A stretch of DNA of 32,000 bases, taken from assembly GCF_022348085.1 (NCBI RefSeq), contig NZ_JAKRFN010000007.1, positions 9,943 through 41,942 of the forward strand. Reading direction: 5' to 3'. Origin of the DNA: Mycobacterium sp. PSTR-4-N (GTDB lineage Bacteria > Actinomycetota > Actinomycetes > Mycobacteriales > Mycobacteriaceae). This document shows positions 1,707 through 31,173 of the stretch, in pieces. The position numbers and the translations under genes are program-made. The notes under the pieces were generated by a model. It searched no databases. It was not told the DNA's origin and saw only the letters and a list, made by a program, of their open reading frames with translations. The number at the start of each line of letters is the position of its first letter. Within the stretch, counting starts at the first letter, position 1.

Positions 1707-1723
1707 GAAAGGCCCACGACCCC

Positions 1724-2704: not shown

Positions 2705-2731
2705 ACCCACCCCACCAGAAAGAGGATCACC

Positions 2732-3049
2732 ATGAACCACCTGCCCGAATTCACCTCCACCCTCGCAGGACTGCCCGCCGACACCCGCATCGTGGCCGTC
2801 GCCGACCTCGTCCAAGGCACCCAGGGCCTCTACACCATGGGGGTAGCGATCCTGGCGATCCTGTTCCTCATCGCCGGGGGCGCTCGCGGCCTCGCCGCCT
2901 TCGGCGGCGGTCGCATCGGCACGGCGATCGGTTGGGTGGCCGCCGGCATCGTCTGCGCTGTCGTCATCGGCAGCGCCTACGCGATCTACGTCTCGACCAA
3001 ACAGACCGTCGACAGCCACACCGGCGTCACCACCGGGCAGTTCGGCTGA
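2732..3049 (+). CDS. Small 2-TM membrane protein (105 aa), VirB3/ConD-like or TrbC/VirB2-like T4SS component candidate
   Basis: ATG 2732 is preceded by AAGAGGA. Two hydrophobic helices: MGVAILAILFLIAGGA and IGWVAAGIVCAVVIGSAYAIYV. The stop lies 2 nt before the VirB4-like start. The call rests on size, topology and position only. Confidence 0.45.
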   Translation: MNHLPEFTSTLAGLPADTRIVAVADLVQGTQGLYTMGVAILAILFLIAGGARGLAAFGGGRIGTAIGWVAAGIVCAVVIGSAYAIYVSTKQTVDSHTGVTTGQFG

Positions 3050-3051
3050 CC

Positions 3052-5937: not shown

Positions 5938-7991
5938 TGATCACCGCCGCGCCGGCGACCACCTCGAGACTGCGCGACGTCGCCGCAGAACGTCTGGGCT
6001 ACGAGCTCGCCGTACACCCGCGTCTGCGCCGACTCCTGACGTTCTGGACGATGACCCACGTCCTGGCGCTCTGGGCGGTGATCGCCGCGCCCCGGGCCGC
6101 GGCCTCCACCATGTCAGCGGCGCTCAACTGGACCGGGATCACCGACACCGACGGCGTGCCCGTCGGCGCCTACTTCCTGTCCACCGTGGACACCATGGAG
6201 GCCCTCACCGAATCCGGCCCCGACGTCAGCGTCGTCGACCCCGGCTCCTGGGTCCGCTGGGGAGCGCACGCGATCACCACCGGCCTCACCCACGAGACCG
6301 TGGCGAGCTGGGTGCAAGCGCAGGCGTCGTGCTACATCTTCCTGCTCGCCGCGGTGCTGTGGCTGCTCAAGTTCGCCATGTCGAGCACCTGGTTGTATTG
6401 GCTCGCTGCGTGGTTCCGACCAATCCTGGAAGCGCTTCGCCAGATGCTCGTCGACCTCCACTTCTTTCAGATCTGCCTGGCACTGGGCATCGGCGTCGGC
6501 GCCTTCCACATCTTTTGGCACGGCCGCCGCGGTCATGGCGCCGCCATCATCCTCACCGCATTCGCCATCGGCATGCTGGGACTGTGGCTCACCCGCGACC
6601 CGCTGGGTGAGCTGACCGGCAACGACGGACTGCTCAACCAGGCCAGGGCACTAGGTTTCAGCGTCGCCCAAGCCGCCACCAACAACGGCCCCATCGCCGT
6701 CGGCGGGACGACCGGCCAGCTCGGACACCTCACCAGTGTCCTGGCCGACGCGTTGGTGCGGGCGCCTCTGCAAATATGGAATTTCGGCACCACCGTCGAC
6801 ACCATCGGCAGCTGTGGTCACGCATGGTCGGCGGCGATCATGAGCGGTGTGCGGGATGCTCCCGCCCACGCCATGACCTCCTGCGGAGCGCCCCAAGCTC
6901 TGCGCTACGCGCAAGGCATCGACGGCACGGTGTTCGCGCTCGGCATCGGATTCTGCTTGCTGGGAATGGTTTTCGCATTCTTCGTGCTCTATGTCACCTA
7001 CAGCTACATCATGGTCTGCGGTGCAGCGCTGCTCAACGCCGTAATGGCGATCTTCGCCGCCGGGCCGGCCATGATTCACGGAGCTCCACGCCGCCGCGCA
7101 CGGCGACGCCTCGAGCAATTCTTCCGTCACGCGTTCCTGGTATTTGTCTACGTTCTCTACACCTGCGTCGCCGCCCTCCTCATCCTGAAAACCGTTGCAC
7201 CAGGCGGGCTGGCGTCCCAAGTAGGCATGACTAGCCCCGTCGCCATGCTCGTCCTCGTCGCCCTCTGGTCGGCAGTGGCCACCGGCGTCTTTTGGTACCT
7301 CAAGCGCGAAATACTCCACGACAACACCCGCCAGGACCTCGTTCAATCCGTGCGCCAGGCCGTGCACCTCGGCAACCAGGGATACCGACGCGGCCAGAGC
7401 CGCATCGGGCAAGGCAAGAATATCGCCGACAAGACCCGCGAACGGTTCTCCCGAGCATCCGACGAAACTGGAGAAAAACCAGGGTCGACGCTGACGCAAG
7501 CGCCGGTGGCTGGCCGGTCCCCCAGCGGCTCATCCGCCCGCCCCGGGCGCCTCACCCCCGCCGCGAGGTCCGGCGCGGGTGCATCGAGCAGATCCACCGC
7601 CGCTACGCGCATCGGCGGTGCAGGTGCTGGTGCCACCACGGCCGGTAGCGCCTCTGCCGCCGGCGGCGCCGCCGGGGCGGCCGAGGCCGGCGCAATGGTC
7701 CTCGCCCCGGAAGTGGCACTCCCCGCGGCCGCTGCAGGTGCCGCCGCCCACAGGATGAAAAGCAACCATCAGTCGTCCTCCGGCCGAGAAAGAGCAACCC
7801 AGGACCAGACGCCGCGCGAACGCCGCGCCGACGCCCTGCAGCCACCCCGACAGCGCGCACCGGGCACGCCACCGCCGCCGTCGGGTTTCGGGCCCGTAGC
7901 GACCCGCGGAGACCGCAATGCCGCCCCGTCCCGTGATCCCGTTCGCGCCCCTGATGAGCCTCCCGCACCCGTCCCCGGGCGAACACGCTGA
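5937..7991 (+). CDS. VirB6/ConG/TcpH-like polytopic membrane protein (684 aa) with long disordered C-terminal tail
   Basis: ATG 5937 overlaps the VirB4-like stop (TGATG). At least 7 hydrophobic helices, e.g. CYIFLLAAVLWLLKFAM, FFQICLALGIGVGAFHIFW, AAIILTAFAIGMLGLWL, GIGFCLLGMVFAFFVLYVTYSYIMVCGAALL, FLVFVYVLYTCVAALLILK and VAMLVLVALWSAVATGVFWYL. The last 220 aa or so are rich in Ala/Gly/Ser/Pro/Arg. The family call rests on topology and its position after VirB4. Confidence 0.55.
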   Translation: MITAAPATTSRLRDVAAERLGYELAVHPRLRRLLTFWTMTHVLALWAVIAAPRAAASTMSAALNWTGITDTDGVPVGAYFLSTVDTMEALTESGPDVSVVDPGSWVRWGAHAITTGLTHETVASWVQAQASCYIFLLAAVLWLLKFAMSSTWLYWLAAWFRPILEALRQMLVDLHFFQICLALGIGVGAFHIFWHGRRGHGAAIILTAFAIGMLGLWLTRDPLGELTGNDGLLNQARALGFSVAQAATNNGPIAVGGTTGQLGHLTSVLADALVRAPLQIWNFGTTVDTIGSCGHAWSAAIMSGVRDAPAHAMTSCGAPQALRYAQGIDGTVFALGIGFCLLGMVFAFFVLYVTYSYIMVCGAALLNAVMAIFAAGPAMIHGAPRRRARRRLEQFFRHAFLVFVYVLYTCVAALLILKTVAPGGLASQVGMTSPVAMLVLVALWSAVATGVFWYLKREILHDNTRQDLVQSVRQAVHLGNQGYRRGQSRIGQGKNIADKTRERFSRASDETGEKPGSTLTQAPVAGRSPSGSSARPGRLTPAARSGAGASSRSTAATRIGGAGAGATTAGSASAAGGAAGAAEAGAMVLAPEVALPAAAAGAAAHRMKSNHQSSSGRERATQDQTPRERRADALQPPRQRAPGTPPPPSGFGPVATRGDRNAAPSRDPVRAPDEPPAPVPGRTR

Positions 7992-8308
7992 TGACGACAC
8001 CGAAGCGGCCCGTGATGCACCCTGCGGCACTCTCGTCCAACCGGGCCTTGGCCGCCGCGCGTGCCGATCTGCACGAAGCCCTGCGCGCTGACGACGAGCA
8101 CCGGCGTCAGCAGTACGCGCGCTCCGCACGCGACAGCGCCGCCGAAGTCCTCTGGGACGCGTCAAGCACCCGGCTCGAGTGTGAATACGCCATCTATTAC
8201 CTCGGCGACGCGGAGGCCATGATCGCGGCGACAGCCTCGAACAAGGCAATTAACCCCAAGCGGATTGGCATGACCGGTAGGCCACGGATGAACGCGTGTC
8301 GCGCTTAG
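7991..8308 (+). CDS. Hypothetical protein (105 aa), last gene of plus-strand operon
   Basis: ATG 7991 overlaps the upstream TGA (TGATG), suggesting translational coupling. No recognisable motif. Confidence 0.4.
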   Translation: MTTPKRPVMHPAALSSNRALAAARADLHEALRADDEHRRQQYARSARDSAAEVLWDASSTRLECEYAIYYLGDAEAMIAATASNKAINPKRIGMTGRPRMNACRA

Positions 8309-14154: not shown

Positions 14155-15743
14155 GAGCGGTACCTGATCGCCGAGAACACACCCATGAGCCAAAACGTCA
14201 GCGGGAACGGTGCGACGAAGAGCACGTAGCCCATCAATTCGACGACCTGCTTGAACATGGGGCTGTAGACGTGGGTGGGGATGATTGCCGCCAAGGCCAG
14301 CCCCGCGGCGGTCAGAACGAGCATGCACGCACACCCGATCAGCAGCGCGGCCGGCGACCACAGTTCGAGGACGTAGCGCAGCGGGACGGCCAGGCCGACC
14401 GCCACGGCCGCTACGGCCACCAACGTCGATTGCTGGCGGTCGGTGTAAGACCTGGCGTGCAGCAGGATGCAGCCGGCGCTGGTGGCGGCAACCACCAGCG
14501 GCAGCCAACGCGGGTCGGCGTGTGGATCGCACAGTGCAGTCGAGCAGATCACCAGCAGGATCGAGAATCCAGCGAGCAGCCCCGTCTGAAAGCCGCGCGC
14601 GCGGTCGACGGAGATGACGACGTTGCGGACAGATTCAGGGCCCTCCAAAGTGGGCGCCGTACCGCTGGGCACCACCACGGCGCTGGGAAGGTCTGGTCGC
14701 GTCTCGAAGATCCACCGACCGCTGGCTGAGGGGAACACCGGTAGCCGCAGGTTGGCCAGCATGCGCGCCAACCCGGGGGTCAGCTTGAGGCAGAAGATGC
14801 TGACCAGCAGCACGATGCCCAACAGCGACACCGCTGAGGTGACCCACAACATGCGCGCCACACCGGAGAGCAGGGTCGCGACGCTAAGTACGACCACCGC
14901 GGTGCACAGCGCGATGTGGCGACCGGTGAAGCGCATGGGGAGAATCGCCGCGGCCAGCGTCACCGCGGCGCCAAGGCCGGCGTGCACGGCGCCCAACGGG
15001 CCGGGAATGAGCACAGATGCCGCGACGGCCGTGGTGGTAGCCGCCAGGAGCAGGAACGCGTCGGCCACGAACAGTTCAGCGCGTAACACATCGGCCCGGC
15101 CGGGTTCGGCGCCGCGCAGGTCGCCGGCTGCGCGGCGGTTGCGCGTCGACCGGATTCCGGTGACCGCCGCGACGATGAGCAGGACCAGCGCACACACTCC
15201 CGCAGCGGCGCTGGCGGTCCAGTCATCGTGGCCGTAGCGCCAGCGCAGCAGCAACGCATCGACCAGAAATGTCGCGCCCGCTACCAGGATGACACCGACC
15301 CGCGCGGCCCACGGCGGGGTCACCGACGGCCAGTGCTTGCGCAGCTCGGCGGGAATGGCGCTGGTGACGTGTTCGATCACCGGAATTCGTGTCTCGACGT
15401 CGTCGATGAAGCGCAGCCACAACGTGGCGCCGTCGAGGACTGCCTGCTCGCTCAAGGAGCGCTTCGGTTTCAACGGTGTGCCGTCGACCCAGCACAACGC
15501 CCACCGGCCGCGGCCGGCGACCGGATCTCCCGGACGCACCGACAACCGCGGCTTTCCGATCTCGGCCAGACGGACGTTGAGCACGTCGACCAGCGCCGGG
15601 GTCTGGATGCCGATGGCTGCGGCAGCGTCGAGGCGCACCGCGATCGAGACGTCGTTGACCATGACCGCGACGAGCACCTGACGCAGCTGCTCGGTTTCCT
15701 CCCCCGCCCCGGCGCTAACCGCGGCGTCACGAACAGAGGTCAC
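14151..15743 (-). CDS. eccD: EccD, polytopic ESX membrane channel component (530 aa)
   Basis: Start reassigned to GTG 15743 (GTGA overlap with the upstream stop). An N-terminal soluble ubiquitin-like-type region (VSIAVRLDAAAAIGIQTPALVDVL...TLWLRFIDD) is followed by about 11 hydrophobic helices. Confidence 0.85.
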   Translation of the reverse strand: MTSVRDAAVSAGAGEETEQLRQVLVAVMVNDVSIAVRLDAAAAIGIQTPALVDVLNVRLAEIGKPRLSVRPGDPVAGRGRWALCWVDGTPLKPKRSLSEQAVLDGATLWLRFIDDVETRIPVIEHVTSAIPAELRKHWPSVTPPWAARVGVILVAGATFLVDALLLRWRYGHDDWTASAAAGVCALVLLIVAAVTGIRSTRNRRAAGDLRGAEPGRADVLRAELFVADAFLLLAATTTAVAASVLIPGPLGAVHAGLGAAVTLAAAILPMRFTGRHIALCTAVVVLSVATLLSGVARMLWVTSAVSLLGIVLLVSIFCLKLTPGLARMLANLRLPVFPSASGRWIFETRPDLPSAVVVPSGTAPTLEGPESVRNVVISVDRARGFQTGLLAGFSILLVICSTALCDPHADPRWLPLVVAATSAGCILLHARSYTDRQQSTLVAVAAVAVGLAVPLRYVLELWSPAALLIGCACMLVLTAAGLALAAIIPTHVYSPMFKQVVELMGYVLFVAPFPLTFWLMGVFSAIRYRS

Positions 15744-17260
15744 CGCTGGGCCGTCCGTCCGCTGCGGAAGCCCTGAGCCAGCCACGCCGCCACGTCCATG
15801 AAGGCGTACTGGGTGTCGCGGCGCAGCGCGTCGAAGTCGAGCTGGGGGTTGTCGCGCAGGTCCTTGTCCCACGGCACGGTGGTCACCCCGCCCACCCGCT
15901 GGCCCATGGTTTCCCGCACCTTGGCCAAGAAGTCCTTGTTGGCGCAGTTGTAGACGTCGTTGAGTACGAGCGCCGAACGTCGCAGCAGCGCCTGGTATTC
16001 GCTGCGCGCGGCGAGCCACTTAATCGTGGTCTCCGCCGCCGCCGCGCCGTCGAAGTTCATCGTGCCGACGATGATCAGCGCGTCGACCTTCGACAGCACC
16101 GCTTGCATGACCGGGTGCTCGATCTCTGGCCCACAGTCGATGAGCGCCAGCTGGTAGAACCGGCGAACGCGGTCCAGCACGGCGGTGAAGGCCTGCGGTG
16201 ACAGGTCGAACGGGTGGGCGACGTTCTGGTTGGCGCCCAGCACCTCCAGGCCCGGACCGTTCTTGCCGGTGTAGTGGCGGGCCATCGGGTAGGTGTTGAG
16301 GTTGCCGTCGGCCAGGAAGTCGCGGATCGACGCGGTGGCGGTCGGATCGATGAGGCGACCCAGGGCCCCGTAGGTCGGGTTGGCGTCGATGGCGATCACC
16401 GGTTCAGTCCGATACTTGGCGTAGGCAGTACCCACGCCGGCGGTCATCCGTGTCTTGCCGACACCGCCACGCACGCACACCACGCCGATCAGGTAGTTGC
16501 CGGGGATGTTGGTCTTGATGAGGTCGATCTGTTCGCGCAGACGCTGCTCGGCAGGGCCGGCGCCCAGGTTGATGGTCTTGCCCGACCCGACGTACACCGT
16601 TTTGCGCCAACCCATCTCGGGCGGCAGCTTGCGGGCGGCCACGACGTCCTCAGCGCGCAGCGCCGGAGCGTTCGAGAAGTCCGAATCGTTGGCCTGAGAC
16701 GGTGCGAAGCTCAGCTCGCGGGCCGCCTCCCAGCTCGCCGGCGCCTCCCGTCGTGCCACTTCGTAACCGGTGTCGGCCGGTCCCCGGCCGCGGGGCGCTG
16801 CGAACGACTGAGCGGTTGGTCGGTGACGTTCGGGGACGCGGGTGGCCATGTCCTGGCCGGCGTCTGTGACCGCCGACATCGGCCCCGACGACGGTTGAGC
16901 CAGTTCGCTGCGCTCCGGTACGGCGGGACTCTGATAACCGCGACCATCGGTGGCGGGGCCGCGATGGCGGGGTCCGTCATCCCTGCCTTCGCCCCGGCCG
17001 TCGGCCGGACGCTGCGGGGCGTCGTAGTGTCGAGCGGCACGCGCGGCTGCGAGGACCGCCGGGTCGATGGCTTGTGTCGTCTCCGCCCACCCTGGGCGCT
17101 GCTCGGCGTAGGGCACCGTCGGTTCAGGCAGCGAGGGCGTCGCCGGGGCCTGTGGTTCGCCACCGATGTCGGGCTCGTGCTCCACACTCCAGCCGGGAGT
17201 GCCCTCGTCGGCGTCGCGCTCGTCGAGATACCGCGCCTGAAAATCTGGATCCATGCTCAT
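15740..17260 (-). CDS. ParA/MinD-type P-loop ATPase with Pro-rich disordered N-terminal half (506 aa); EspI / Rv3888c-like
   Basis: ATG 17260 has GGGGTGG upstream; the track start 17269 is a GTG three codons earlier. Deviant Walker A IGVVCVRGGVGKTRMT (16451-16471), then VIAIDANPTYG. The first 230 aa or so are rich in P/A/D/E/R. Its position between espG and eccD is as in M. tuberculosis ESX-2. Confidence 0.75.
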   Translation of the reverse strand: MSMDPDFQARYLDERDADEGTPGWSVEHEPDIGGEPQAPATPSLPEPTVPYAEQRPGWAETTQAIDPAVLAAARAARHYDAPQRPADGRGEGRDDGPRHRGPATDGRGYQSPAVPERSELAQPSSGPMSAVTDAGQDMATRVPERHRPTAQSFAAPRGRGPADTGYEVARREAPASWEAARELSFAPSQANDSDFSNAPALRAEDVVAARKLPPEMGWRKTVYVGSGKTINLGAGPAEQRLREQIDLIKTNIPGNYLIGVVCVRGGVGKTRMTAGVGTAYAKYRTEPVIAIDANPTYGALGRLIDPTATASIRDFLADGNLNTYPMARHYTGKNGPGLEVLGANQNVAHPFDLSPQAFTAVLDRVRRFYQLALIDCGPEIEHPVMQAVLSKVDALIIVGTMNFDGAAAAETTIKWLAARSEYQALLRRSALVLNDVYNCANKDFLAKVRETMGQRVGGVTTVPWDKDLRDNPQLDFDALRRDTQYAFMDVAAWLAQGFRSGRTAQR

Positions 17261-17376
17261 GAAAACCACCCCAATGGCTTGAAGAACAACTATTGATGCA
17301 ATCGTAGGGCCGCCGAATACCGGTTAACTACGCCCAAAGAAGAAAGTTCGGTACAAAATTGCCAGGCGCTCAGTAA

Positions 17377-21021: not shown

Positions 21022-24000
21022 TTAGTTGGCAACGGATTCCGGCGAAGTATCGAGCCCGATTTGAACGTATCGTCCCGATTCACCGGTACTTACGAAGAAT
21101 CCGCGTCCAGGTGGCATCGGATGGCCCTTCCACCGGCCCCGAACGAACCCCTCCTCCCCGTCGGAGTCCATGACGAGAAGCGGTGCGTTCGCCTGCTTCA
21201 TCGCCCCCAGCAGCGGGTCGGCGCGGTCTGAGCCGGCCCAGCCGCCGAATCGGCGCGCGTAGACCACGCGCAGACCAACGTCGGTGGCGGCGTGCGCGCT
21301 GGGCACCAGTTCACGTAGCGGGGCGTCGTAGCCCGGCGGTAGTCGATCGGCGTCGTCGACGATCAGAAAGATCTCCGGGCCCGACCACCGCTGGGCCAGG
21401 CTGGTGTCGACGTCGAGACCGGCCTCGGGCAGCCTGGCGGTCAGGATGCGGTTCAGCTCGGCAGCCCACGGCCCCATCTCGTCGTTGCGGTAGGTGAACC
21501 GTTCCAGATAGTCCTTGCCGAGGACGCGCAAGAGTTCTCGGCGCGGGTTGACCAGCCACACCTGAGCGCGGGGACGCGGGTCGCCGGGATCTGGTGTCGC
21601 CGTGCTGGCGCCGGGTGCGTAGGTCCTCGCAATCTCGCGCATGATCGCCGACAGTGCGTTCGTGCGTCCGCAGTCCTCGCGGCCGGTAATGATCAGGAAC
21701 GGAGAGTCGCGTTCCAGGCCGACCAGCTCGTCGCGCTCGTCGACGGCCCATGCCATTCCGGTGTGGTAGTCACGCTGCGCGCGTGCTTGCAGATCAGCCA
21801 GCGTGACGTGGCTGGGCAGCGCCCGGACCCGAGGAGCTGGGCGGTATCGGGCCGCGGCCCGGCGGACCGCCTCGACCACGCTGTCGGACTTGAACTGGGC
21901 GGTGGGAGTTCCCCGCAACGCCGGCCGCGCGATCTGAGTGTGCAGGCCTTCTTCCTCGGCTCCGAGGCGTACGTAGTTCTGAGCAACCATCCCTCGGCCG
22001 GGCTTGCCCGACGGCACGGCGTCGGTGAGCTTGCCGCGTAGCAGCTTGGCGTCCTCGGGGCCCTGCAGCTTGAGCTCGATGCGTTGCGGCCAGGAACCGC
22101 GCATGCGTGGCGGCAGCTCGATGTCGCGGGCCACACTGACGATGACGTGGATGCCGAAGCTGCTGCCCTCGCCCACGATTTTTTGGATCTGCGCCGAGAG
22201 CAGGTCCTTGTTGCGGATCGTCGATGCTTCCGCGGTCAGCGCGGCGTAGTTGTCGATCACCAGGTAGACGTCGCCGAAGGGGTCGTCAGGCACTGCGCCT
22301 GGCGCGCCGCCGAATTTCCGATCACGCAGGTCCTGGACGGAGCTAATTCCGCACGCCGGGAAGCTGCGTTGTCGGCGTTCGAGGAGTTCGAGCATCTCGG
22401 AGATGGTGCGTCGGATCCCGTCTTCGTCGAGAATTCCGGCCACGCCGCCCACGTGGGGCAGGCCGGCAATGGTTTCCAGCGCGGTCGACGACAAAGCCAG
22501 GCAGTAGAACTGCACCTGCTCCGGGGTGTGGGTCATAGCCGCAGCGCAGATGATCGTCTGCAGGGTCGTGGTCTTGCCTGAGGAGCGCACGCCGACAACG
22601 AGCTGATTGGCGCCGTCGGCGCGGGTGTCGACGAGCAGAGGGTGCTGGTCTTGTTTGTACGGCCGGTCCACGATGCCCACCGGGAACACCAGATTTGGTG
22701 TGGCGGCGTAGTTTTCGTCCCAGCGGTGCCCCAGGTGGGCATTGACGATGTCGTCGATGGTGTGCGGGACGTCTAGGGGCGGTTGCCAGAGAACCTGCGG
22801 CTTGAAACCGTAGTTCCGCAGCTGATCCAGGATGACTGGGCCGACCTTGGGTTTGCGCAAAGCGTCGTCCTCGTCCTCCTGTTCCTCGACGGTTTCCGCA
22901 GGCTGGGCGGCAGCATGGTTGATCAGATGCTCGGGAATCTCGACCCATGACGTCGTGAACAGTTGTGGTTCGAGATAGCGATCGGAGGTGGACGTGGCTT
23001 CGATGACGTCATCGTTGTCAGGGCTGGGTCGGCGGTAGTCGCGCCACAGCGACTCGGCGCGGAACCGGGTCAGTTCGTCGGCGGACCCGGTACGCATGTA
23101 CCCCACGCCGACTTCTCGGGGCAGGTTCACCGCCTGCGGAACGCCCGCCGCCGACGCGCTGGCCGAGGTGTTCTGCCGCAACACCAGCCGGTACCCGACG
23201 TTCTCGAGCAGCTTCTCGGCTCTCGAGTCGATGTCTTGGCTGGCCAGCAGCTGGTGGACCCACAGCGATCGCCCCTGTCGGCCGATCTGGTCCAACACCT
23301 CGGGCAGATCCGGCTTGATGCGGAATGCTTCCTTGAACTCGTCGAGCACGACCAGCAGACGGGGAAGTGGCTCCAGATGCTCGCCGCGCAATGAACGTTC
23401 GGAGCGGATCTGGTTGTACTCATAGGCGTCATCGGCGCCCACGGAGTTGCACACCTGCTTGCGTCGGGCGATTTCACCCCACATCGCGGTAATGAACCGG
23501 TCCATGAGGACCTGGTCGTCTTCCAGGTCGGTGATGATGTGCGGTACGTGCGGGGTGCCCTCGAACGGTTTGACACCGGCGCCGCCCTTGCAGTCAGCCA
23601 GGATCATCTGCAGATTCTCCGGGGGGTGGCCCAGGATCGCCGCCAACAGCACGGTACGGATGGCCGTGGTCTTGCCCGACCCGGTGGTTCCCGACATCAC
23701 CCCGTGCGGCCCGTCACCGCCCTGGTTCATGTCCTTCATGTCGACGAAGACCAGCTCGCCGTTGTCGGCGCGGACACCATAGGGGATGCGCAGATTCGCG
23801 GCGGCGTTGATGTCGCGGTGCGGACCCCACAGCGCCTCGAAGTCGATTGCAGCGGGGTCTTTGACCCCGTAATAGGCCAAGATGTCGCGAGGGCGGCGGA
23901 AATCCCCGAGATCCTCGGCGATGTCCTCATAAGGCTCGGCGATCCGCGACCGCGCGATGGACTGGGCCAGTTGCTCGGCCTCGAACCGATCGAGGTGATC

Positions 24001-25221
24001 GCCGATCGCGAAGAACTGGAAACCCTCCTCTGAATCAGGCGCCCACGTGCCGTCCCGCGGTACCGCGTCGATCACGCCGTCATCCTTGAGGCGCAGCGTC
24101 CGCACGCCCCGATGGTCCTGACAGGCCGGCACGCCACCTTGCACGTCGAAGAACGTCCACCCCTGCACGCCAGTCGAGGTCATCACCGAATACCAGCCCC
24201 CGGGCGCGACGTCGCTGACCACGATCGTGTGGGGCATCGGCGCGACGGGGTCGCGGCTGGCCGCGTGGCGGGCGACGAACGCGCCGCCGCGGCGGACCGC
24301 ATCAGTGAACTGCCGATCAGCGAATTCGGCGACCGATGTATACACCATGCGTGCCGGACCCGCACCGTCGTCCTGGTGCGGATTGCCGTTGTGCGGCAAC
24401 CACTTCACCCAGTCCCATTCAGCGACATCGTCGGTGACGACGACCAGCCTCAAATGATCCGGGCCGTGGGAGAACACCAACTGCGCGATGATCGCGCGCA
24501 TCAGCCCCAGCGCTTTGTCGCGATCGCCGTCAATGCGATACCCCGGCTCCACCAACAACGAGATGAGCGCCGGTGTGCCGTAGGCAACGCTCTGGTAGCG
24601 GACGAACTCCTGCAACGCCTTGCCCGTCGCCGGTTCGAGCTCCACTTCGGTAGGCATGTCGTCGGGCTCACTGAAGGTCACGGCCCCGCCCTCCACCAGG
24701 GAGGTCATGCCGACCCCCACCCGGGCGACGCCGAACCAGGTGTCCTTACCGTTGGGGTTGCGTTCCCACATCCGCGGGCCGCCCGCCTGGGCGAGCAGCG
24801 TGTCGGCCGGAGGGTGGTACCACCGGTAGTTTCCGTCGAGTTTGTCGGCGGCATCAGAGACCCGGTCACGCATCTCGTCGAGGACGAGCAGGAAACGAGC
24901 CCGCATCGCGTCGAGCTTGCCGCGACTCATCTGCTGATTGCCGCCGCTGAATCGGCCCGAGAACAGCATTGCGCCGATTCCGAGAATGCTGAACACCGGG
25001 AAAATCGCCCCGACACCGTTGAAGGTGCGTGCGCCCGAGGCGAACGAGACCGCGACCATGCCGACCACCAGGCCGATAACCAGGATGCCGACGACGATGA
25101 GCCATGGCGACTTTCCCTCGGGGGGCGGGACCTTAAGAGGCGTCAGGAGTTTGATCGGTTGCGGCTTGAGGTCACTTCCCGGCGGTGGGGTGGGCTTCGG
25201 CCGGACGAAACCTTGCTTCAC
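21022..25221 (-). CDS. eccC: EccC, FtsK/SpoIIIE-family T7SS ATPase, single polypeptide (1399 aa)
   Basis: GTG 25221 overlaps the eccB stop (GTGA). Two N-terminal TM helices. Three P-loops: GTTGSGKTTAIRT, GVRSSGKTTTLQT and GREDCGRTNALS. Walker B-like LLVVLDEFKE, VYLVIDNYAAL and IFLIVDDADRL. Confidence 0.95.
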   Translation of the reverse strand: MKQGFVRPKPTPPPGSDLKPQPIKLLTPLKVPPPEGKSPWLIVVGILVIGLVVGMVAVSFASGARTFNGVGAIFPVFSILGIGAMLFSGRFSGGNQQMSRGKLDAMRARFLLVLDEMRDRVSDAADKLDGNYRWYHPPADTLLAQAGGPRMWERNPNGKDTWFGVARVGVGMTSLVEGGAVTFSEPDDMPTEVELEPATGKALQEFVRYQSVAYGTPALISLLVEPGYRIDGDRDKALGLMRAIIAQLVFSHGPDHLRLVVVTDDVAEWDWVKWLPHNGNPHQDDGAGPARMVYTSVAEFADRQFTDAVRRGGAFVARHAASRDPVAPMPHTIVVSDVAPGGWYSVMTSTGVQGWTFFDVQGGVPACQDHRGVRTLRLKDDGVIDAVPRDGTWAPDSEEGFQFFAIGDHLDRFEAEQLAQSIARSRIAEPYEDIAEDLGDFRRPRDILAYYGVKDPAAIDFEALWGPHRDINAAANLRIPYGVRADNGELVFVDMKDMNQGGDGPHGVMSGTTGSGKTTAIRTVLLAAILGHPPENLQMILADCKGGAGVKPFEGTPHVPHIITDLEDDQVLMDRFITAMWGEIARRKQVCNSVGADDAYEYNQIRSERSLRGEHLEPLPRLLVVLDEFKEAFRIKPDLPEVLDQIGRQGRSLWVHQLLASQDIDSRAEKLLENVGYRLVLRQNTSASASAAGVPQAVNLPREVGVGYMRTGSADELTRFRAESLWRDYRRPSPDNDDVIEATSTSDRYLEPQLFTTSWVEIPEHLINHAAAQPAETVEEQEDEDDALRKPKVGPVILDQLRNYGFKPQVLWQPPLDVPHTIDDIVNAHLGHRWDENYAATPNLVFPVGIVDRPYKQDQHPLLVDTRADGANQLVVGVRSSGKTTTLQTIICAAAMTHTPEQVQFYCLALSSTALETIAGLPHVGGVAGILDEDGIRRTISEMLELLERRQRSFPACGISSVQDLRDRKFGGAPGAVPDDPFGDVYLVIDNYAALTAEASTIRNKDLLSAQIQKIVGEGSSFGIHVIVSVARDIELPPRMRGSWPQRIELKLQGPEDAKLLRGKLTDAVPSGKPGRGMVAQNYVRLGAEEEGLHTQIARPALRGTPTAQFKSDSVVEAVRRAAARYRPAPRVRALPSHVTLADLQARAQRDYHTGMAWAVDERDELVGLERDSPFLIITGREDCGRTNALSAIMREIARTYAPGASTATPDPGDPRPRAQVWLVNPRRELLRVLGKDYLERFTYRNDEMGPWAAELNRILTARLPEAGLDVDTSLAQRWSGPEIFLIVDDADRLPPGYDAPLRELVPSAHAATDVGLRVVYARRFGGWAGSDRADPLLGAMKQANAPLLVMDSDGEEGFVRGRWKGHPMPPGRGFFVSTGESGRYVQIGLDTSPESVAN

Positions 25222-26765
25222 TTCGGCTGCTCCAATGCTCCAGGGTTCTGACCCGCCGGCAGTGTGTTGTAACGCAATTGGGCATCAGACCGCGCCAACG
25301 TCGGGCCGGCGACGAACAACCGCAACACCGACCATGGGGCCGGTTTCGGTTCGGTGTTGAGCCCCAACGCCGTCAAGGTCTGATTGTCTCGCTCCACCCC
25401 GAACCGAATTCCGAAGTCCGAGAGCCACCACACCGACTCCTTCGTCGACGCGGTCTGGCCATTGCCGGTGCTGACGACGTAGTTGGCGTAATCGGGGGCG
25501 AAGTAGATCTGGTCGGCCACCTGACCACCGGTGTCGGCCGACGTCACCAGCTTGACGATGTGGCTGGTTTTGTCCGTGGGGACCGGGATGCTTGCTCCCG
25601 ATACCACCGAGGTCGTACTGCGGTCCTCGCCGCTGCCCTTCTGCCACCACCAGCAGGTGGCCGGGTTGGCTTGCGTGTCGACCACCTTGAGGGGCTCATC
25701 GGGGTAGATCGACGTGTCGATCACATTGACCGACGGCAGTTCTGCCAGCTTGGAGCCGGCGATGACTGCGATCGCGCCCGAAGGATTCCCGCCGGCGTTC
25801 TGCAGGATCTGGGCCACGATTGGGGAGACGGTCTGCATGCCGGAGAGCAGCACCACCGAGTACGTGGTGTTGCCTTCGACCTGTGGAGTGGAGATCACTG
25901 TTCCCACCGGCCCGGGGGCGCCGGGGAACGGAGCGGGAACGCCCAGACCGGCGATGGCCGGGACCGTCAGCGGCGGCGCCACCGGGATGGCGTTCAACAG
26001 TGCCTGGCTGATCGGTCGGGCCGACGCGAGGTCCTCGGCGGTGACCCCCAACGCCAGCAGAACCGGCCGCTGGCTGGCATCCACCAGCGAGCGGCGGCCA
26101 TCGCGGATCAGCCACACGTCGGTGCCGAAGCGCAGCAGGACACCATCGTCTTTGTCCAGGACGCGTCGGCGATCTGACAGATCGGGTTGTCCGTCGATGA
26201 CCGTCACCGTGACCGGTTCGGGTGCGCCGGCACCGAACGCCTTGGTGACCGCATCGCAGACCAGCCACGACGAACCTGCTGGCGAGGTGGCGTTCATGGA
26301 ATCCGGAGCCCCGGGGATACCCACCCACACACCGTGCGGTCGGGAGTCGATCTCGCTGCGCCGCACCGGAACCGGGTCCAACGCCTGACCGGCGATCAGA
26401 CGCGCCGAGGACAGGTTGAGCGCCGGGTACAACACGTTGTTGACATTGACGAACAGGTCGTCGGTCTTGTTGTCGGCGATGATCTTGGAGTCGCTGATCG
26501 AACCGGCGGGCCGGATGAACGACCAGAACAGCGCACCAAGGCAGATGACGATGACCAGGGAGAGGCCGGCGAGGATGGCCATCCATTCCCGCCGCCCGGG
26601 CTCGGCTTCCATCCGCACCTGCCGGCGGGTCATCCCCAGTGCAGCCCGCCGCGCCATGAACTGGTGAGCAGTGACCTGGACGCGCGTCGCGTACCCCAGG
26701 CCGCGGCCCAGCCGTCGTCTGGCGACCTCTTTGTCCTCGACGGCGCTGCCTCGTTCGCCTGCCAT
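25218..26765 (-). CDS. eccB: EccB, ESX membrane component (515 aa)
   Basis: ATG 26765 with GGGAGCGGAG upstream. The N-terminus ATRVQVTAHQFMARRAALGMTRRQVRME precedes a single TM (WMAILAGLSLVIVICLGALFWSF) and a large extracytoplasmic domain. It is the first ecc gene. Confidence 0.9.
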   Translation of the reverse strand: MAGERGSAVEDKEVARRRLGRGLGYATRVQVTAHQFMARRAALGMTRRQVRMEAEPGRREWMAILAGLSLVIVICLGALFWSFIRPAGSISDSKIIADNKTDDLFVNVNNVLYPALNLSSARLIAGQALDPVPVRRSEIDSRPHGVWVGIPGAPDSMNATSPAGSSWLVCDAVTKAFGAGAPEPVTVTVIDGQPDLSDRRRVLDKDDGVLLRFGTDVWLIRDGRRSLVDASQRPVLLALGVTAEDLASARPISQALLNAIPVAPPLTVPAIAGLGVPAPFPGAPGPVGTVISTPQVEGNTTYSVVLLSGMQTVSPIVAQILQNAGGNPSGAIAVIAGSKLAELPSVNVIDTSIYPDEPLKVVDTQANPATCWWWQKGSGEDRSTTSVVSGASIPVPTDKTSHIVKLVTSADTGGQVADQIYFAPDYANYVVSTGNGQTASTKESVWWLSDFGIRFGVERDNQTLTALGLNTEPKPAPWSVLRLFVAGPTLARSDAQLRYNTLPAGQNPGALEQPK

Positions 26766-26942
26766 CTACTCCGCTCCCGCGTTCCCGCTATGTACTGCGA
26801 CTCGATCAACTCCGGTCACTGAACCAACCTAAATTGGCCTCATCGGCTCAGCGACGCCCCAAGATGGGCAATCTCGGAATTCATCATGCCTGGTCTACGA
26901 GGTGGGCTGATGCACCAAATTAGTGGGGGGACGACCGCGAGG

Positions 26943-27980
26943 TCACGCCACGCGGCGGATCTCCAGGTGCCCTTTGGGCAGCGAACTCAGGTGCACGCGC
27001 TCACCTCGGTTGGGGGCTTCGATCACCATGTCCGGAGACACGGCCATCACGACGTGCTCGGGACGCCCGCGCTGCCAGTTGCACAGAATCAGGTCACCTG
27101 CCCGGATGTCGTCGCGGCTGACGCGGGCACCCGAGTTGACAAGGTCGTAGGTCGTCCGCGGCAACTCGATACCCGCTTGGCGATACGACCACTGCACCAG
27201 CCCGGAACAGTCGAACGCGCTGGGACCGGTCGCGCCCCACACATACGGTGCGCCCTGCCGGGTCTTCGCCGCGGCCACCGCCCGGTTGGCGCGATCACTG
27301 CCGTTGCCGTCGTGCCCGAACAGGCCGGCCGTCAACCGACTCGCGTCTCGGTTGTTTGGGCTGGTGAGGCGGCCGGGAAGGCGGGAGAACATTCCCATGC
27401 CGGGGAAGCCGCCACCGCCGCCGCCCATCCCCATCGAGGGCATCCCGCCGCCCATGCCCGCACCGCCACCCATCCCGCGGAACATGCCCGCCGGGGACGC
27501 CTGGCCGGCCTGGCGGTAGGCCATCGCCATCTGGCGCATCCGGGTCGCGAGCAGCTGATTCTGAGCCTTGGTGGTGTCGAGTTGGCGCTGCATCGCGGCC
27601 ATCCGGTCATCCATGCTGGTCACCAGCGTCCGCACTCCGGCCGGTGACCCCGTTGCCGGTGCGATCGCCGCCGCGGTGCTGGCGGCGCTTTGCCGCACCC
27701 CGGTTGCATTCGCGCGGCCGTTCTGACCCTCGGCCGTCCCGGCACTGGAGGTGCCGTTGGTTTGGGCGTCCAGGGCGCTCACCGCGCCCCAGGTGCGCTT
27801 ATAACCGTCGCCGGCGGTGCTGGCCCCGGTACCCAGTGCTGAGTCGGCAGGAGCGGCCGGGACCCCGGGCCCACCGGTCTGCACAGACCCTGGACCGCCC
27901 GCGGTGGGAAAGACCCCCTGAGCGGCGCCCAACACCCGGTCTACCTGCGCGATATACGCGCCAACACCCGAGCCGCCCAC
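26943..27980 (-). CDS. NlpC/P60 peptidoglycan endopeptidase with helical N-terminal domain and Gly/Met-rich linker (345 aa)
   Basis: GTG 27980 is the first possible start after an in-frame TAG. The C-terminus QGAPYVWGATGPSAFDCSGLVQWSY...GDLILC...PEHVVMAV contains the NlpC/P60 catalytic Cys/His pattern. The N-terminal 190 aa or so are homologous to the adjacent 171-aa protein. Confidence 0.8.
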   Translation of the reverse strand: MGGSGVGAYIAQVDRVLGAAQGVFPTAGGPGSVQTGGPGVPAAPADSALGTGASTAGDGYKRTWGAVSALDAQTNGTSSAGTAEGQNGRANATGVRQSAASTAAAIAPATGSPAGVRTLVTSMDDRMAAMQRQLDTTKAQNQLLATRMRQMAMAYRQAGQASPAGMFRGMGGGAGMGGGMPSMGMGGGGGGFPGMGMFSRLPGRLTSPNNRDASRLTAGLFGHDGNGSDRANRAVAAAKTRQGAPYVWGATGPSAFDCSGLVQWSYRQAGIELPRTTYDLVNSGARVSRDDIRAGDLILCNWQRGRPEHVVMAVSPDMVIEAPNRGERVHLSSLPKGHLEIRRVA

Positions 27981-28045
27981 CCGCTCAAACTAACCGGCCG
28001 ACAACCCCACAACCACGCCCCAAGACAACCAAAAACAGACAACCA

Positions 28046-28561
28046 TCAGGCCTGCCGAAGAGCCGCCATCTCCGCACCACGGGCGGTGATCTGCTGGGCC
28101 GACACCTCCAGTTGCTGCCGCGTGTGCCGAATGTGTTCCTGCATCGCCGCCAAGCGGCCGTCCATTTGGCGCACCAGCTGAGTCAGGTCATGTGGCTCCG
28201 GGCGCTCCCCCAGTGCGACTATGGCCTGGGCGCCGGCGGCCCGGGCTATGCCCCGCGCAGTCTCCCCAGCGCGGGTTGCAATCGCCGCGGCATCGCGCAC
28301 CGCCTCCTGGAATGCATCGGACAGCGCCGCAGCCCTGGCGTCGTCGCTGCGATAGCGCGCCGCCGCGTCCTCGGCGGCCGCGGCCATCCCGCTAGCGCCT
28401 TCGGGAACGCCCCCGCCTGCCACCCCCGCCGGGGCGGACAGCGCGGCGGGAGTCGAGGCCCGATCGGGAAACAACGAGACCGCGGTGGCGAGGATGCGAT
28501 CCACCTGCGCCACGTAGTTATCCCCAATGCCCATACCCGCAAGGATATGCGCCGCGATCAT
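28046..28561 (-). CDS. Helical Ala-rich protein (171 aa), paralogue of the N-terminal domain of the NlpC/P60 protein
   Basis: ATG 28561. GIGDNYVAQVDRILATAVSLFP aligns with GVGAYIAQVDRVLGAAQGVFP. LVRQMDGRLAAMQEHIRHTRQQL aligns with LVTSMDDRMAAMQRQLDTTKAQN. Contains YRSDD (YxxxD). Confidence 0.6.
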   Translation of the reverse strand: MIAAHILAGMGIGDNYVAQVDRILATAVSLFPDRASTPAALSAPAGVAGGGVPEGASGMAAAAEDAAARYRSDDARAAALSDAFQEAVRDAAAIATRAGETARGIARAAGAQAIVALGERPEPHDLTQLVRQMDGRLAAMQEHIRHTRQQLEVSAQQITARGAEMAALRQA

Positions 28562-28900
28562 GGTTCGACGGCGCCGGTCAAACCGGGCTGCGGCGCCCCG
28601 CTTCCCATCTGATCAACAGGACACCCGAAGTACCGGGCCGTTCCTACGCAGATGCCGAACCGAGCGGTGCGCTATTGGATCGTCACGGGCAGGGCAGTGT
28701 GTCGCTGTGCTTGGCCCTGAGTCCTTCGTCATCGCCACGGTGTAGTTGCCGACTAATTGTCGAGGAACCTGGAGTCATCCCCACGCGATCGGTGCTGTCG
28801 GTTGTGGCCACCGGCGGCCGCCGATAGCGATGCTGGGAAGCGTTGCGCGACAGCGGGTGTGGCGGGGTGCCTGGCGCCTTCGAGCTGTCCCCGCGAACGG

Positions 28901-30700
28901 TCAGCGGAACAGCACGGAGGCCAGTGACGGGCTGTCGTAAAAAGCCAGCGCCGCGAGCACGAACAGGGTTACCGCCATAGCGACGATGAGGGGCCAGGAC
29001 GTGGTATCGCGTCGCCGCGTCCACAAATAGCCAATGACTGCGATGGCAATCAGGGGCGCCACTTGAGCACCCAGGGCAATGGAATACACCCAACCACCGG
29101 CCAGGAAAGTAGCCACCACACACACCAGGTACAGCCCGAAGGCCGCGAGGATCCCCAGACCGATCAGGCCGGTCATCGACAGGGTGCGCTTCATGACTTC
29201 ATTCGGGTGACCACCGACGACATATCGTGGCAGCGCTTCATACCCTTTGGCCTGCACGACGTGGGTGACGACGTTGTCGATGGAGGGCTGCCAGACCATC
29301 TTGGCCAAAGCGGTGTATCCCAGGCGTTCCGGTGCGGCGAAGGGGCCATCGTCAGAGCCCGGTCCTTCGGTGATATAGCCGCGGATATCGAGGTGCGGGG
29401 TACCTGCTTGTTCGGTCCAGCGGAAGTGGATGGTGCTCCCTGGGCCGTCTTCATGCCCGGGCAAGGTGGCGAACTCGATGTCGATGGCATCAGCGGTGCG
29501 TTGAATCTGAGTGACCTGGACCGGCAGGTTGGCGAGTTGGGCGCCGGCTACCTTCATCTCCAGCGGCAGCTGGTCCCCGACCGCAGGAAACGCCTGGGGC
29601 GCACCGCCAATGGGGAAGTTGCAGTTGAAGCAGCGATGCAGTTCCTTCCACACGTCGTCCAGGGAGACCAGGCTGCCGCCATCGACAACAGTGCCGTCGG
29701 GACCGCGGGCGTGCACTGTGGTGGTGTAGCCGTTGTTGTACTCCCACGGCGCTTTTGGCAGGGGACCCGGCGGGGCCTCTTTGATCGTGGAGTTGTCCAG
29801 GGCTTGCACGGTCTGCGGGGGTGCGGCCGCGGTGTCGGCGACCAGATCCGCAGCGCGGGTCGTGTAGTCGGCGTAGGCAGTGACCGCACGGCTTTGCAGC
29901 GCGGCGAGTTGGGTTTGCAGAGCGGTGATGACCGAGGCGTAGCGGCCGCCGCTGGCGGTGTTGGCTTGGCGGGCAGCGATCAGACGTCGCTCCAGCTCGG
30001 CGAACTCTTCCAGGTGCGGGGTGGCCGCGCGGGTGCTGGTGAATACCTCGGCCTGCTGCGCGCAGATCCGCCCCGTCGCGGCGGCGCAGGCGGCGTGATC
30101 GACGTACCACCGCTCCAGCATGGCCAACCAGGTCTGAGCATTCTGCGCCGCCGGGGACTGCCAACTCCGCGCCAATTGTGAACGACCGGAACGGATATCG
30201 TTGCCGACATTGCGCAACTCGGCAGCGTGCGCGCGAGCGGCGTCGGCGGCCGCGAGCAGTGAGGCGGGGCCAGGTCCACAGTGGATGAGGGCCGCGATGG
30301 ACTTGCCGTCGGTAGGAGTCACCCCCGCCGGCATGGCGGCACCCGTGGGCGCCACCGCGGCAACGAGAGATAACCCCACCCCGGCAGGGGCGGTGGTCGT
30401 GCTGGGTGCTGGGGCGCTTGTCGAGCCCAGGGCGGCTGCGTTGAGCTCTTCCTGGTCGCGGTAGGTCGAAGCGTTGGCGTGCAGTCTGACCGCGGCCGCA
30501 GCGGTGATGGAAGCCGCCTGGGTGCTGTAACCGCTGATGACCGCCAGGCGGGTCGACACGACGCCGGCCACCGTGGCCGACACCTGATCCGCCGCCGCGG
30601 CCGCCACGGTCACACCGCTCAGCGCGTGCGGCGTGCTCACCGATCGGGTGATCGTGGCGGCTGCGCCGTGCAGCTCGTCGCCCTCAACGTACAGACCCAC
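28901..30700 (-). CDS. PE-PPE single-chain fusion (EspB-like N-terminus), unknown globular domain, 3 C-terminal TM helices (about 599 aa)
   Basis: The track start 30790 is a TTG. I prefer GTG 30700, which has GAGGGG and a 6-nt spacer. PE-like part: AAAADQVSATVAG...STYRDQEELNAAALG (YxxxE). PPE-like part: HCGPGPASLLAAADAARAHAAEL...SWQSPAAQNAQTWL. Middle domain: WEYNNGY...FATLPGHEDGPGSTIHFRW. TM helices: GLIGLGILAAFGLYLVCVVATFL, VYSIALGAQVAPLIAIAVIGYLW and WPLIVAMAVTLFVLAALAF. Confidence 0.65.
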   Translation of the reverse strand: MGLYVEGDELHGAAATITRSVSTPHALSGVTVAAAAADQVSATVAGVVSTRLAVISGYSTQAASITAAAAVRLHANASTYRDQEELNAAALGSTSAPAPSTTTAPAGVGLSLVAAVAPTGAAMPAGVTPTDGKSIAALIHCGPGPASLLAAADAARAHAAELRNVGNDIRSGRSQLARSWQSPAAQNAQTWLAMLERWYVDHAACAAATGRICAQQAEVFTSTRAATPHLEEFAELERRLIAARQANTASGGRYASVITALQTQLAALQSRAVTAYADYTTRAADLVADTAAAPPQTVQALDNSTIKEAPPGPLPKAPWEYNNGYTTTVHARGPDGTVVDGGSLVSLDDVWKELHRCFNCNFPIGGAPQAFPAVGDQLPLEMKVAGAQLANLPVQVTQIQRTADAIDIEFATLPGHEDGPGSTIHFRWTEQAGTPHLDIRGYITEGPGSDDGPFAAPERLGYTALAKMVWQPSIDNVVTHVVQAKGYEALPRYVVGGHPNEVMKRTLSMTGLIGLGILAAFGLYLVCVVATFLAGGWVYSIALGAQVAPLIAIAVIGYLWTRRRDTTSWPLIVAMAVTLFVLAALAFYDSPSLASVLFR

Positions 30701-31173
30701 CAGCACCCCCTCAGCTGAGTCGCAGGACTTCAGTATGCCGCCGCACCACCGCGCAGCAACCACAAACCCGCGCGCAGTCCGATAGGTCAATGGTGTTGGC
30801 GATGTCGGCGGTGACCGTTACCCGTTGGCCTACGACCGCGATGTTCCGCCGCCAACTATCCCTACGGGGATCGTGCGCGTTCCGACTTCATTAGTCGTGA
30901 TCCCCGACGCCTAGTCCGTTGCCGACGCGTACGGGTCATCGAGCTTTGCTAGGCCCGGGAAGAGATCGTTGAGAGCTCGGGTACGTCCAAATCGACTGCC
31001 GCGGAGCGGAACTGCTGTTTCAAATCATCACCGAATGTGAGGAACGCGCCTCGGTGGCGAATCGCGACCAAGCTGCCGTTCATCGAATTGGGCACCGTGT
31101 TCCCCGACCCGCGCCTGGTCGCTGCGATCGTCGACAGGGTCCGAGCCGCACCGCTTGCTGCAATGCTCGGGTT

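Follow-up and report, generated by a model that had tools for sequence, protein, structure and literature searches.

The gene pair upstream of eccB

We analysed a 32,000-nucleotide (nt) stretch of DNA from Mycobacterium sp. PSTR-4-N (contig NZ_JAKRFN010000007.1, positions 9,943 to 41,942 of the forward strand; hereafter the window), which carries a complete ESX-P type VII secretion system (T7SS) locus on its minus strand, as found both in the RefSeq annotation and in our own scans. The subject of this study is a pair of adjacent genes at the head of that locus. One encodes a short protein made up of a single helical N-terminal module (N-module), and the other a long protein in which a related N-module is joined to an NlpC/P60 cell-wall hydrolase domain. 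An earlier note on this DNA had placed the two open reading frames (ORFs) upstream of eccB, and both were confirmed there on the minus strand. The features of the pair, some of which draw on AlphaFold2 (AF2) models and their per-residue confidence (pLDDT), are the following.

28046..28561 (-): stand-alone N-module paralogue, the short protein; longest ORF 171 amino acids (aa)
27981..28045 (-): spacer between the short and long genes; 65 nt, T/G-rich
26943-27980 (-): ORF of the long protein; 345 aa
27486..27980 (-): N-module of the long protein, residues 1-165; from AF2 and alignments
27336..27485 (-): Gly/Met-rich low-complexity linker, residues 166-215; pLDDT <50, predicted disordered
26967..27254 (-): NlpC/P60 (C40) catalytic domain, residues 243-338; Pfam PF00877
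27209-27207 (-): C258, in FDCSG; catalytic
27056-27054 (-): H309, in PEHV; catalytic
27020-27018 (-): E321, in IEAP, twelve residues past the His; catalytic
27340..28049: 710-bp repeat; the N-module with its 69 upstream nt, plus the linker as far as about codon 213; from blastn
26766..26942 (-): gap between the hydrolase gene and eccB; 177 nt

The short protein had been described as aligning with roughly the first 190 residues of the long one. The paralogy held up and the extent did not: BLASTP gave 30% identity over 155 columns (E 2e-9), joining residues 7-158 of the short protein to 1-148 of the long, and the homology covers about 150-160 residues. The Smith-Waterman score of 139, against 50.5 +/- 8.4 (maximum 96) in 500 shuffles, corresponds to z = 10.5, so the similarity is not a product of Ala-rich composition, and a compositional artefact was ruled out by this test. 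Both proteins also matched one family hidden Markov model with E between 1e-58 and 1e-64 (1.6e-64 for the short protein). On these alignments the two are true paralogues. The motifs singled out in the earlier note, namely VDRxL...LFP in helix 1, an aligned Tyr (Y70 in the short protein, Y60 in the long) and LV..MD.RxAAMQ, turned out to be the best conserved columns of the family.

The start codons of both genes were re-examined. In the short gene, a second ATG at 28534 (giving 162 aa) is preceded by a conserved TATCCTGGCGGGTATG in ten loci whose upstream frames differ; in full, this motif lies at 28532-28561, reads TATCC(T)TGCGGGTATG and stands immediately 5' of the second ATG. Its conservation despite the differing upstream frames argues that the real start is 28534, and the short protein probably has 162 rather than 171 residues. 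For the long gene, RefSeq (MJO55_RS29575, annotated by PGAP as a C40 peptidase) gives a 313-aa product that leaves out 32 codons from the GTG at 27980 onward. With these codons (27885-27980) the most conserved helix of the family, AYIAQVDRVLGAAQGVFP, is lost, and the M. crocinum orthologue is annotated at its full length of 345 aa. The RefSeq start is 32 codons too late.

As the earlier note had it, the long protein continues from its N-module through a Gly/Met-rich linker into an NlpC/P60 domain, and the match of residues 243-338 to PF00877 (NLPC_P60) reached E 7e-22 and 77.8 bits against a cut-off of 23. In alignments with PDB chains, C258, H309 and E321 are matched by Cys, His and His in CD1368; the partners in these alignments were CD1368, the C. 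difficile hydrolase 7cfl, RipA-family chains and the Tn916-like hydrolases 4hpe and 9ubf. The spacing of the Cys-His-Glu triad is RipA-like. Foldseek searches with the 345-aa model returned NlpC/P60 structures only, with weak scores because the catalytic domain is poorly modelled. Judged by domain match and alignment, the long protein belongs to the NlpC/P60 enzymes, and its catalytic triad is intact.

The N-module family and its cargo

In the N-module of the long protein, AF2 placed a leading helix at residues 5-21 and a hairpin formed by helices 48-109 and 113-160 (helix pLDDT 73-88), with residues 22-47 between them as a disordered Gly/Pro stretch; the short protein was modelled as helices 3-28, 58-117 and 123-170 (mean pLDDT 90.4, pTM 0.77). 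A two-helix hairpin, as in canonical T7SSa substrates, is predicted in both proteins, and the modelled shape of a leading helix followed by a long hairpin is compatible with helical bundles of the T7SS type. When a profile of the module was searched against 1.84 billion representative proteins (E <= 1e-3), the family came to only 195 sequences, about half of them stand-alone proteins of 150-175 aa; the named members are all from Mycobacteriaceae, save one Gordonia metagenome bin. By tblastn the module lies on 23 plasmids, all mycobacterial and 21 of them MOBF-mobilizable, and a contig scan with a narrow peptide pattern yielded 13 loci.

No Pfam or NCBIfam family scored above threshold for the N-terminal part of either protein, and the Pfam model DUF4226 (PF10774, cut-off 23.5), which describes an actinobacterial helical domain, matched neither window protein. 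Two stand-alone members of the family do pass that cut-off (P0183 with 30.2 and P0284 with 29.5) while P0141 scores 23.1, and when the module profile was compared by hhalign with a DUF4226 protein annotated on the plasmid itself, the probability was 94.9% (E 4.5e-8). The two passing members and the hhalign result suggest that the N-module is, by profile comparison, a divergent branch of the uncharacterised DUF4226 extended by an extra leading helix: the Pfam model spans the hairpin alone, whereas the window N-module adds the conserved helix 1. Within the accessible text of the literature searched, the sole paper found to name the domain was an unrelated reverse-vaccinology study, and a profile search of the PDB with the module gave Ala-rich or coiled-coil noise only.

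The cargo attached to the module varies widely. The N-module is fused to NlpC/P60 in the window, in M. crocinum, in pRAW and in M. avium, and to an SLT-type lytic transglycosylase domain in M. crocinum (354 aa) and M. avium (383 aa). Further members carry a Phage_lysozyme2-like domain, a zinc peptidase-like domain with the signature WHPNG..D...NHxDHVH, an Abhydrolase_8 domain, a Pro/Tyr-rich domain (324 aa in pRAW, 326 aa in M. avium), a Cys-containing domain of ~100 residues or Gly-rich hydrophobic tails. We regard the N-module as a common carrier for interchangeable, linker-joined domains that degrade the cell wall.

The window is closely related to a 264-kb circular plasmid of Mycolicibacterium rufum JCM 16372 (NZ_CP092428.2; MOBF relaxase in PLSDB typing), with 99.8% identity across 26000-31000. 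On the M. rufum plasmid a third module-bearing gene lies just outside the window; RefSeq labels its 354-aa product 'hypothetical protein', and it is 82% identical to the SLT-like protein of M. crocinum. The 710-bp repeat of the long gene is 99.4% identical to positions 29145-29854 of locus L001, at this SLT-like gene, ~7 kb past the window end; within the M. rufum RefSeq record alone, the repeat is 707 nt long at 99.86% identity. It stops sharply after the Gly/Met linker, in the manner of a cassette joint. The P60 and SLT proteins are 99.5% identical over their first 211 residues in M. crocinum and 100% identical over 175 residues in M. avium pHP17a, while modules compared across plasmid lineages share only 43-80% identity. 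Between loci, synonymous divergence (dS) in the long gene is 0.4-0.7 for the N-module and 1.0-1.5 for the P60 domain, and the lower value fits either repeated gene conversion or some constraint on the 5' half at the nucleotide level.

The divergent paralogue, which is a bare module on plasmids of fast-growers and a Pro/Tyr-rich protein on pRAW-type plasmids, is not homogenised in this way: the bare module is 30% and the Pro/Tyr-rich protein 55% identical to the cargo module. Homogenised N-modules would fit a need to share one partner or receptor. We infer that all cargo proteins of one element must fit a single partner or receptor, for which the divergent paralogue is the best partner candidate. 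The ratio of nonsynonymous to synonymous divergence (dN/dS) was 0.14-0.31 for the short paralogue, which indicates purifying selection, and 0.05-0.18 for the P60 cargo.

The position of the pair is widely shared. The order short gene, P60 gene, eccB, eccC is repeated in at least seven loci; it is found in the window, on the M. crocinum plasmid (L002), in a metagenome (L005), in M. aromaticivorans (L006) and at L011 and L012; L010 has P60 gene, eccB and eccC at a contig end, the short-P60 pair is present at L008, L009 and L014, and pRAW and the M. avium plasmids have an orthologous P60 gene directly upstream of eccB. In pRAW, from M. marinum E11, the ESX-P1 locus starts with two genes described as 'NLP/P60', mmarE11p_00580 and mmarE11p_00590, whose numbering is fixed by the published transposon site 68840 falling inside the pRAW eccC (67973-72190). 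The 345-aa window protein is a full-length orthologue of the C40 peptidase mmarE11p_00590 (41-43% identity over 98%) and its gene likewise immediately precedes eccB, on a plasmid that is of MOBF type and has both ESX and T4SS-like (type IV secretion system-like) loci. The paralogue upstream differs: it is a 324-aa protein with a Pro/Tyr-rich C-terminal domain in pRAW and a bare N-module in the window. In Ummels 2014 (PMC4173767), mmarE11p_00580 is described as a second NLP/P60 family member, but Pfam finds no NlpC/P60 domain in it (L003 4954-5928), and only the N-module is common to it and the P60 protein; this shared N-module is apparently the reason for the label. The ~165-residue Pro/Tyr/Gly-rich C-terminal domain of these slow-grower plasmids (L003 4954-5928; L004 2997-3977) has no Pfam match.

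The plasmid and the surrounding operon

The gene pair opens the ESX-P operon of a large mycobacterial plasmid of conjugative type. The neighbouring genes used as landmarks are these.

25218..26765 (-): eccB, first core gene of the ESX-P locus; Pfam T7SS_ESX1_EccB E 1e-138 and RefSeq annotation
21022-25221 (-): eccC, following eccB
1447-5937 (+): VirB4-like AAA_10 ORF; from a domain scan

Compared by blastn with the M. rufum plasmid, the window is 99.4% identical across 9014-32000 and 93.3% identical across 5737-8152, so that it is near kin of that record and not identical to it. The segment in which identity drops to 93.3% lies beside the VirB4-like gene, which suggests a mosaic or recombinant past for the T4SS-like side of the element. 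The ESX-P genes are ordered eccA, eccE, mycP, eccD, a MinD/ParA-like ATPase gene, espG, two esx genes, PPE, PE, eccC and eccB; beyond eccB come the hydrolase/short gene pair and then a gene for a PE-PPE fusion protein. On the coding strand, neither a promoter-like nor a terminator-like site was detected in the 65-nt spacer, and the scan likewise gave no terminator-like site between the gene pair, eccB and eccC. Given such a spacer, the short and long genes are, on sequence grounds, likely co-transcribed.

Further observations concern the surroundings of the pair. The ATPase between eccD and espG (15740-17269, -) is a 509-aa protein of MinD/ParA type with CbiA/AAA_31 matches that RefSeq names hypothetical, and a MinD-type ATPase is likewise found among the T7SS/T4SS cluster genes of M. 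avium linear plasmids (PMC12803027). The PE-PPE fusion gene (28901-30790, -) is a single 629-aa ORF in which PE-like and PPE parts are followed by a C-terminal region containing three hydrophobic segments. Its counterpart in the RefSeq record is interrupted by a stop codon and yields two products, a PPE protein of 500 aa and a membrane protein of 97 aa; two adjacent bases (29205-29206) distinguish the window from that record at the split point. In M. crocinum-type loci (L002 13543-14607; L005 9233-9904) a gene for a multi-pass membrane protein with a weak DUF2339-like match lies between the SLT-like gene and the short paralogue, and is absent at the equivalent window position. Upstream of the short gene, 110 nt from its likely start, the sequence GGAACGG-N17-GTCCTG occurs at 28644-28609 (-). 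It resembles the published SigM -35 element GGAACCG, for which the text of the publication gives the -35 only. In related loci, either GGAACCT occurs between -80 and -116 and the -10 regions bear no relation to each other, or another gene lies immediately upstream.

Proposed export, partnership and wall opening

That NLP/P60 genes stand at the start of ESX-P loci and might play a VirB1/CwlT-like role has already been proposed in Ummels 2014 (PMC4173767) and Dumas 2016 (PMC4779608). The presence of the NlpC/P60 gene at the head of such loci and its proposed role are thus already known, and the window locus is a new member of that set. Four things were not found in the literature that could be searched: the shared DUF4226-like module, its variable cargo, the stand-alone paralogue as a conserved companion, and homogenisation of the P60 and SLT modules within a plasmid. 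Paralogy, domain architecture, catalytic triad, synteny, polymorphic cargo, within-plasmid homogenisation of the N-module, purifying selection and, by simple heuristics, a lack of classical signals are directly established here; heterodimer formation, ESX-dependent export and a role in conjugation are what we infer from them.

The explanation we favour joins these elements in one mechanism, in which we place about as much belief as doubt. A cargo protein would pair through its hairpin with the divergent stand-alone paralogue, and the paired complex would be recognised and exported by the adjacent ESX-P machine. Once outside, the P60 enzyme would cut peptide bonds locally, while the SLT-like enzyme with its virtually identical N-module would cut glycan strands. 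Between them they would open the wall enough for the large T7SS and the T4SS-like conjugation apparatus to span it. The two activities of CwlT would in this way be split over two proteins that share one address label.

The argument for export by this route starts from the absence of a conventional signal. The earlier note had named a Sec or Tat signal peptide as a finding that would speak against ESX export, and none is evident: by simple heuristics, transmembrane-like segments are absent from both proteins (the 19-residue hydropathy peaks at <1.0), and their N-termini are not basic and contain no twin-arginine motif. Since the cargos act outside the membrane and have no Sec/Tat signal, a non-classical route of export is needed, for which the adjacent ESX-P machine is the obvious candidate. 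In pRAW, eccC-P1 and the virB4-like gene are each essential for conjugation, as published. Export of a short-long heterodimer by ESX is therefore plausible, and the shared module probably serves for delivery or docking, through which the secretion machinery of the plasmid could open the wall.

A chromosomal precedent has some of the same elements. In M. abscessus, Mab_3663 (PE-like) and Mab_3664 (NlpC/P60) of the ESX-4/SigM regulon were modelled as a secretion bundle of a partner plus an NlpC/P60 protein, and an NlpC/P60 protein of the SigM regulon is cited as needed for conjugation in M. smegmatis (Canestrari et al. 2026, PMC13491425). These pairs resemble ours in setting a small helical protein beside a signal-less NlpC/P60 protein and in their link to conjugation. 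They differ in being chromosomal, SigM-controlled and PE/PPE-like, with YxxxD/E scored as present in Mab_3664, whereas in the window the candidate partner is itself paralogous to the N-domain of the cargo protein, and the canonical motifs are missing.

Several results weigh against export as a T7SS substrate pair. First, the canonical signals are missing. The hairpin turn, P-A-T-G-S-P-A-G in the long protein and E-R-P-E-P-H-D in the short, holds no WxG and no Trp. In the canonical place at the hairpin end the long protein has Y155, a residue shared by all 35 diverse cargo-bearing members compared, but RQAG comes next (R-x-x-G/A/S in these members), so that YxxxD/E after the second hairpin helix is absent, and position +4 from its equivalent is G, A or S in 29 of the 35 and E in just one. 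The earlier note had taken the YRSDD of the short protein as a YxxxD secretion signal, an argument that falls: Y70RSDD (codons 28354-28340) lies near the start of helix 2 rather than after the second hairpin helix, and it is conserved solely in the close clade of the short protein, not across the wider stand-alone family. Second, kinship with known substrates was not detected, as neither protein has a WXG100, PE, PPE or Esp family match in Pfam, hhalign against the WXG100-family Esx protein and the PE-PPE protein of the locus gave probabilities <1%, and Foldseek with the short-protein model gave no match with E < 1. Third, the AF2 monomer of the short protein folds confidently alone, which implies that a partner is not obligatory. 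Lastly, the transposon insertions of the pRAW work lie in eccC and virB4, not in the hydrolase genes. With canonical T7SS signals missing, no WXG100 or PE-PPE kinship and a short protein that folds by itself, ESX export and pairing are put forward here in conditional terms.

The missing signals also count in favour of another possibility, that the hydrolases serve the T4SS-like conjugation machine as analogues of VirB1, CwlT, TraG and TcpG, exported or positioned by it or by some other route, with the N-module as a coiled coil docking onto the mating channel instead of a T7SS targeting domain, and adjacency to eccB reflecting co-regulation only. NlpC/P60 plus SLT is the activity pair of Gram-positive conjugation hydrolases, the Tn916-like hydrolases 4hpe and 9ubf are among the PDB relatives of the P60 domain, the window holds a VirB4-like AAA_10 ORF, and the T4SS-like locus has no equivalent of VirB1, as noted in Ummels 2014 (PMC4173767). 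The likeness to CwlT (ICEBs1), Orf14 (Tn916), TraG (pIP501) and TcpG (pCW3) lies in NlpC/P60 or CHAP combined with muramidase/SLT on a conjugative element. The window differs from them in that the long protein has one catalytic domain and the predicted SLT-like activity sits on a separate paralogue, so that two proteins with a shared N-module replace one bifunctional chain, and in that its proteins lack the signal peptide or transmembrane anchor of the known conjugation hydrolases and are encoded in a T7SS operon. The pair moreover lies ~20 kb from the VirB4-like gene on the opposite strand, and its ESX-operon position is kept across distant ESX-P lineages. We consider a purely T4SS-bound role improbable.

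It is also unlikely, in our estimate, that the N-module is a regulatory coiled coil of CwlO/RipC/PcsB type that blocks hydrolase activity pending release by a membrane partner, with the short protein as a competing regulator or inhibitor. The architecture invites the comparison, since the order of helical hairpin, flexible linker and NlpC/P60 domain at the C-terminus is that of RipC, CwlO and PcsB; there is a partial NCBIfam RipC match over residues 91-330, several homologues are named 'CwlO' by JGI, and the Pfam scan gave a weak SlyX-like coiled-coil signal. The RipC match, however, reaches 90.6 bits and stays far under the family cut-off of 425, and RipA, RipC and CwlO bear Sec signals and act together with FtsEX, whereas the window protein shows no Sec signal by our heuristics and no ftsEX is annotated in the region. 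Regulation would leave unexplained how a signal-less enzyme exits the cytoplasm, and the identical type of N-module carries non-P60 cargos and Gly-rich tails.

The variety of cargo suggests in addition a polymorphic effector (toxin) system, in which the N-module would deliver wall-degrading or membrane-active domains into neighbouring mycobacteria, whether competitors or recipients, and the short protein would act as an adaptor, comparable to LXG toxins and their Lap/DUF3130-type partners in the firmicute T7SSb. The two systems are alike in a constant helical N-domain, variable enzymatic cargo and small helical neighbours, and the window family adds a sharp recombination joint past the linker and, in some members, Gly-zipper-like hydrophobic tails. 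The best geometric fit to the short model was in fact the T7SSb partner LapD2 (7uh4; TMt 0.81, rmsd 2.2 A), with an E of 4.2 that is not significant, and any helical hairpin would be expected to show as much likeness. The window family has no sequence relation to LXG proteins and no LXG Pfam match, belongs to a T7SSa and carries mostly wall hydrolases. An immunity gene is likewise lacking: the 177-nt gap 3' of the P60 gene, after which eccB begins, contains no coding-strand ORF of >=60 aa and hence no candidate. The P60 cargo is strongly conserved by its dN/dS rather than diversifying, and conjugation is the known phenotype of such plasmids, all of which makes a toxin system quite doubtful.

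Least probable is that the short gene is a functionless, decaying remnant of a tandem duplication that lost its catalytic domain, a reading to which its greater divergence lends something (identity to the respective M. crocinum orthologue is 53% for the short protein and 80% for the long) but which is rejected on its dN/dS of 0.14-0.31 and its conservation and is largely refuted, the ORF being intact in at least 10 loci with a conserved start region and a very confident AF2 model, and about half of the 195 representatives being stand-alone proteins of similar length.

A broader form of the favoured explanation, which we offer tentatively and with more reserve than conviction, is that the N-module defines an unrecognised T7SSa carrier family, a counterpart of LXG. 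Its members would use a non-canonical signal composed of VDRxL..LFP in helix 1 and the terminal Y-R-x-x-G, would be exported as heterodimers with the divergent stand-alone paralogue and would bear interchangeable peptidoglycan-cleaving cargo, with gene conversion keeping the N-modules identical for a single partner or receptor. The family may extend to the chromosome: 'BssS' homologues are confined to ESX-2 loci and plasmids, according to Dumas 2016 (PMC4779608), and the M. tuberculosis genes upstream of eccB2 are described as poorly characterised alanine-rich proteins. Both the 'BssS' homologues and these alanine-rich genes of the chromosomal ESX-2 locus may belong to the module family.

These results address two wider questions, namely how large secretion and DNA-transfer machines traverse the mycobacterial peptidoglycan-arabinogalactan layer, and why pRAW-type plasmids need a T7SS plus a T4SS-like system. 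Two annotations can be corrected, as the RefSeq start of the long gene is truncated and the '00580' protein of pRAW is not an NlpC/P60 enzyme, and DUF4226 proteins are linked to ESX loci. If the module proves to be no export signal, the finding shrinks to the published observation of an NlpC/P60 gene beside eccB on ESX plasmids. As it stands, a portable module of ~160 residues marks signal-less wall hydrolases and opens a route to direct experiments. Were the carrier-family reading true, the long-missing wall-breaching enzymes of mycobacterial ESX/T4SS-like conjugation would be identified, and the alanine-rich genes upstream of eccB2 in chromosomal ESX-2 might find their explanation.

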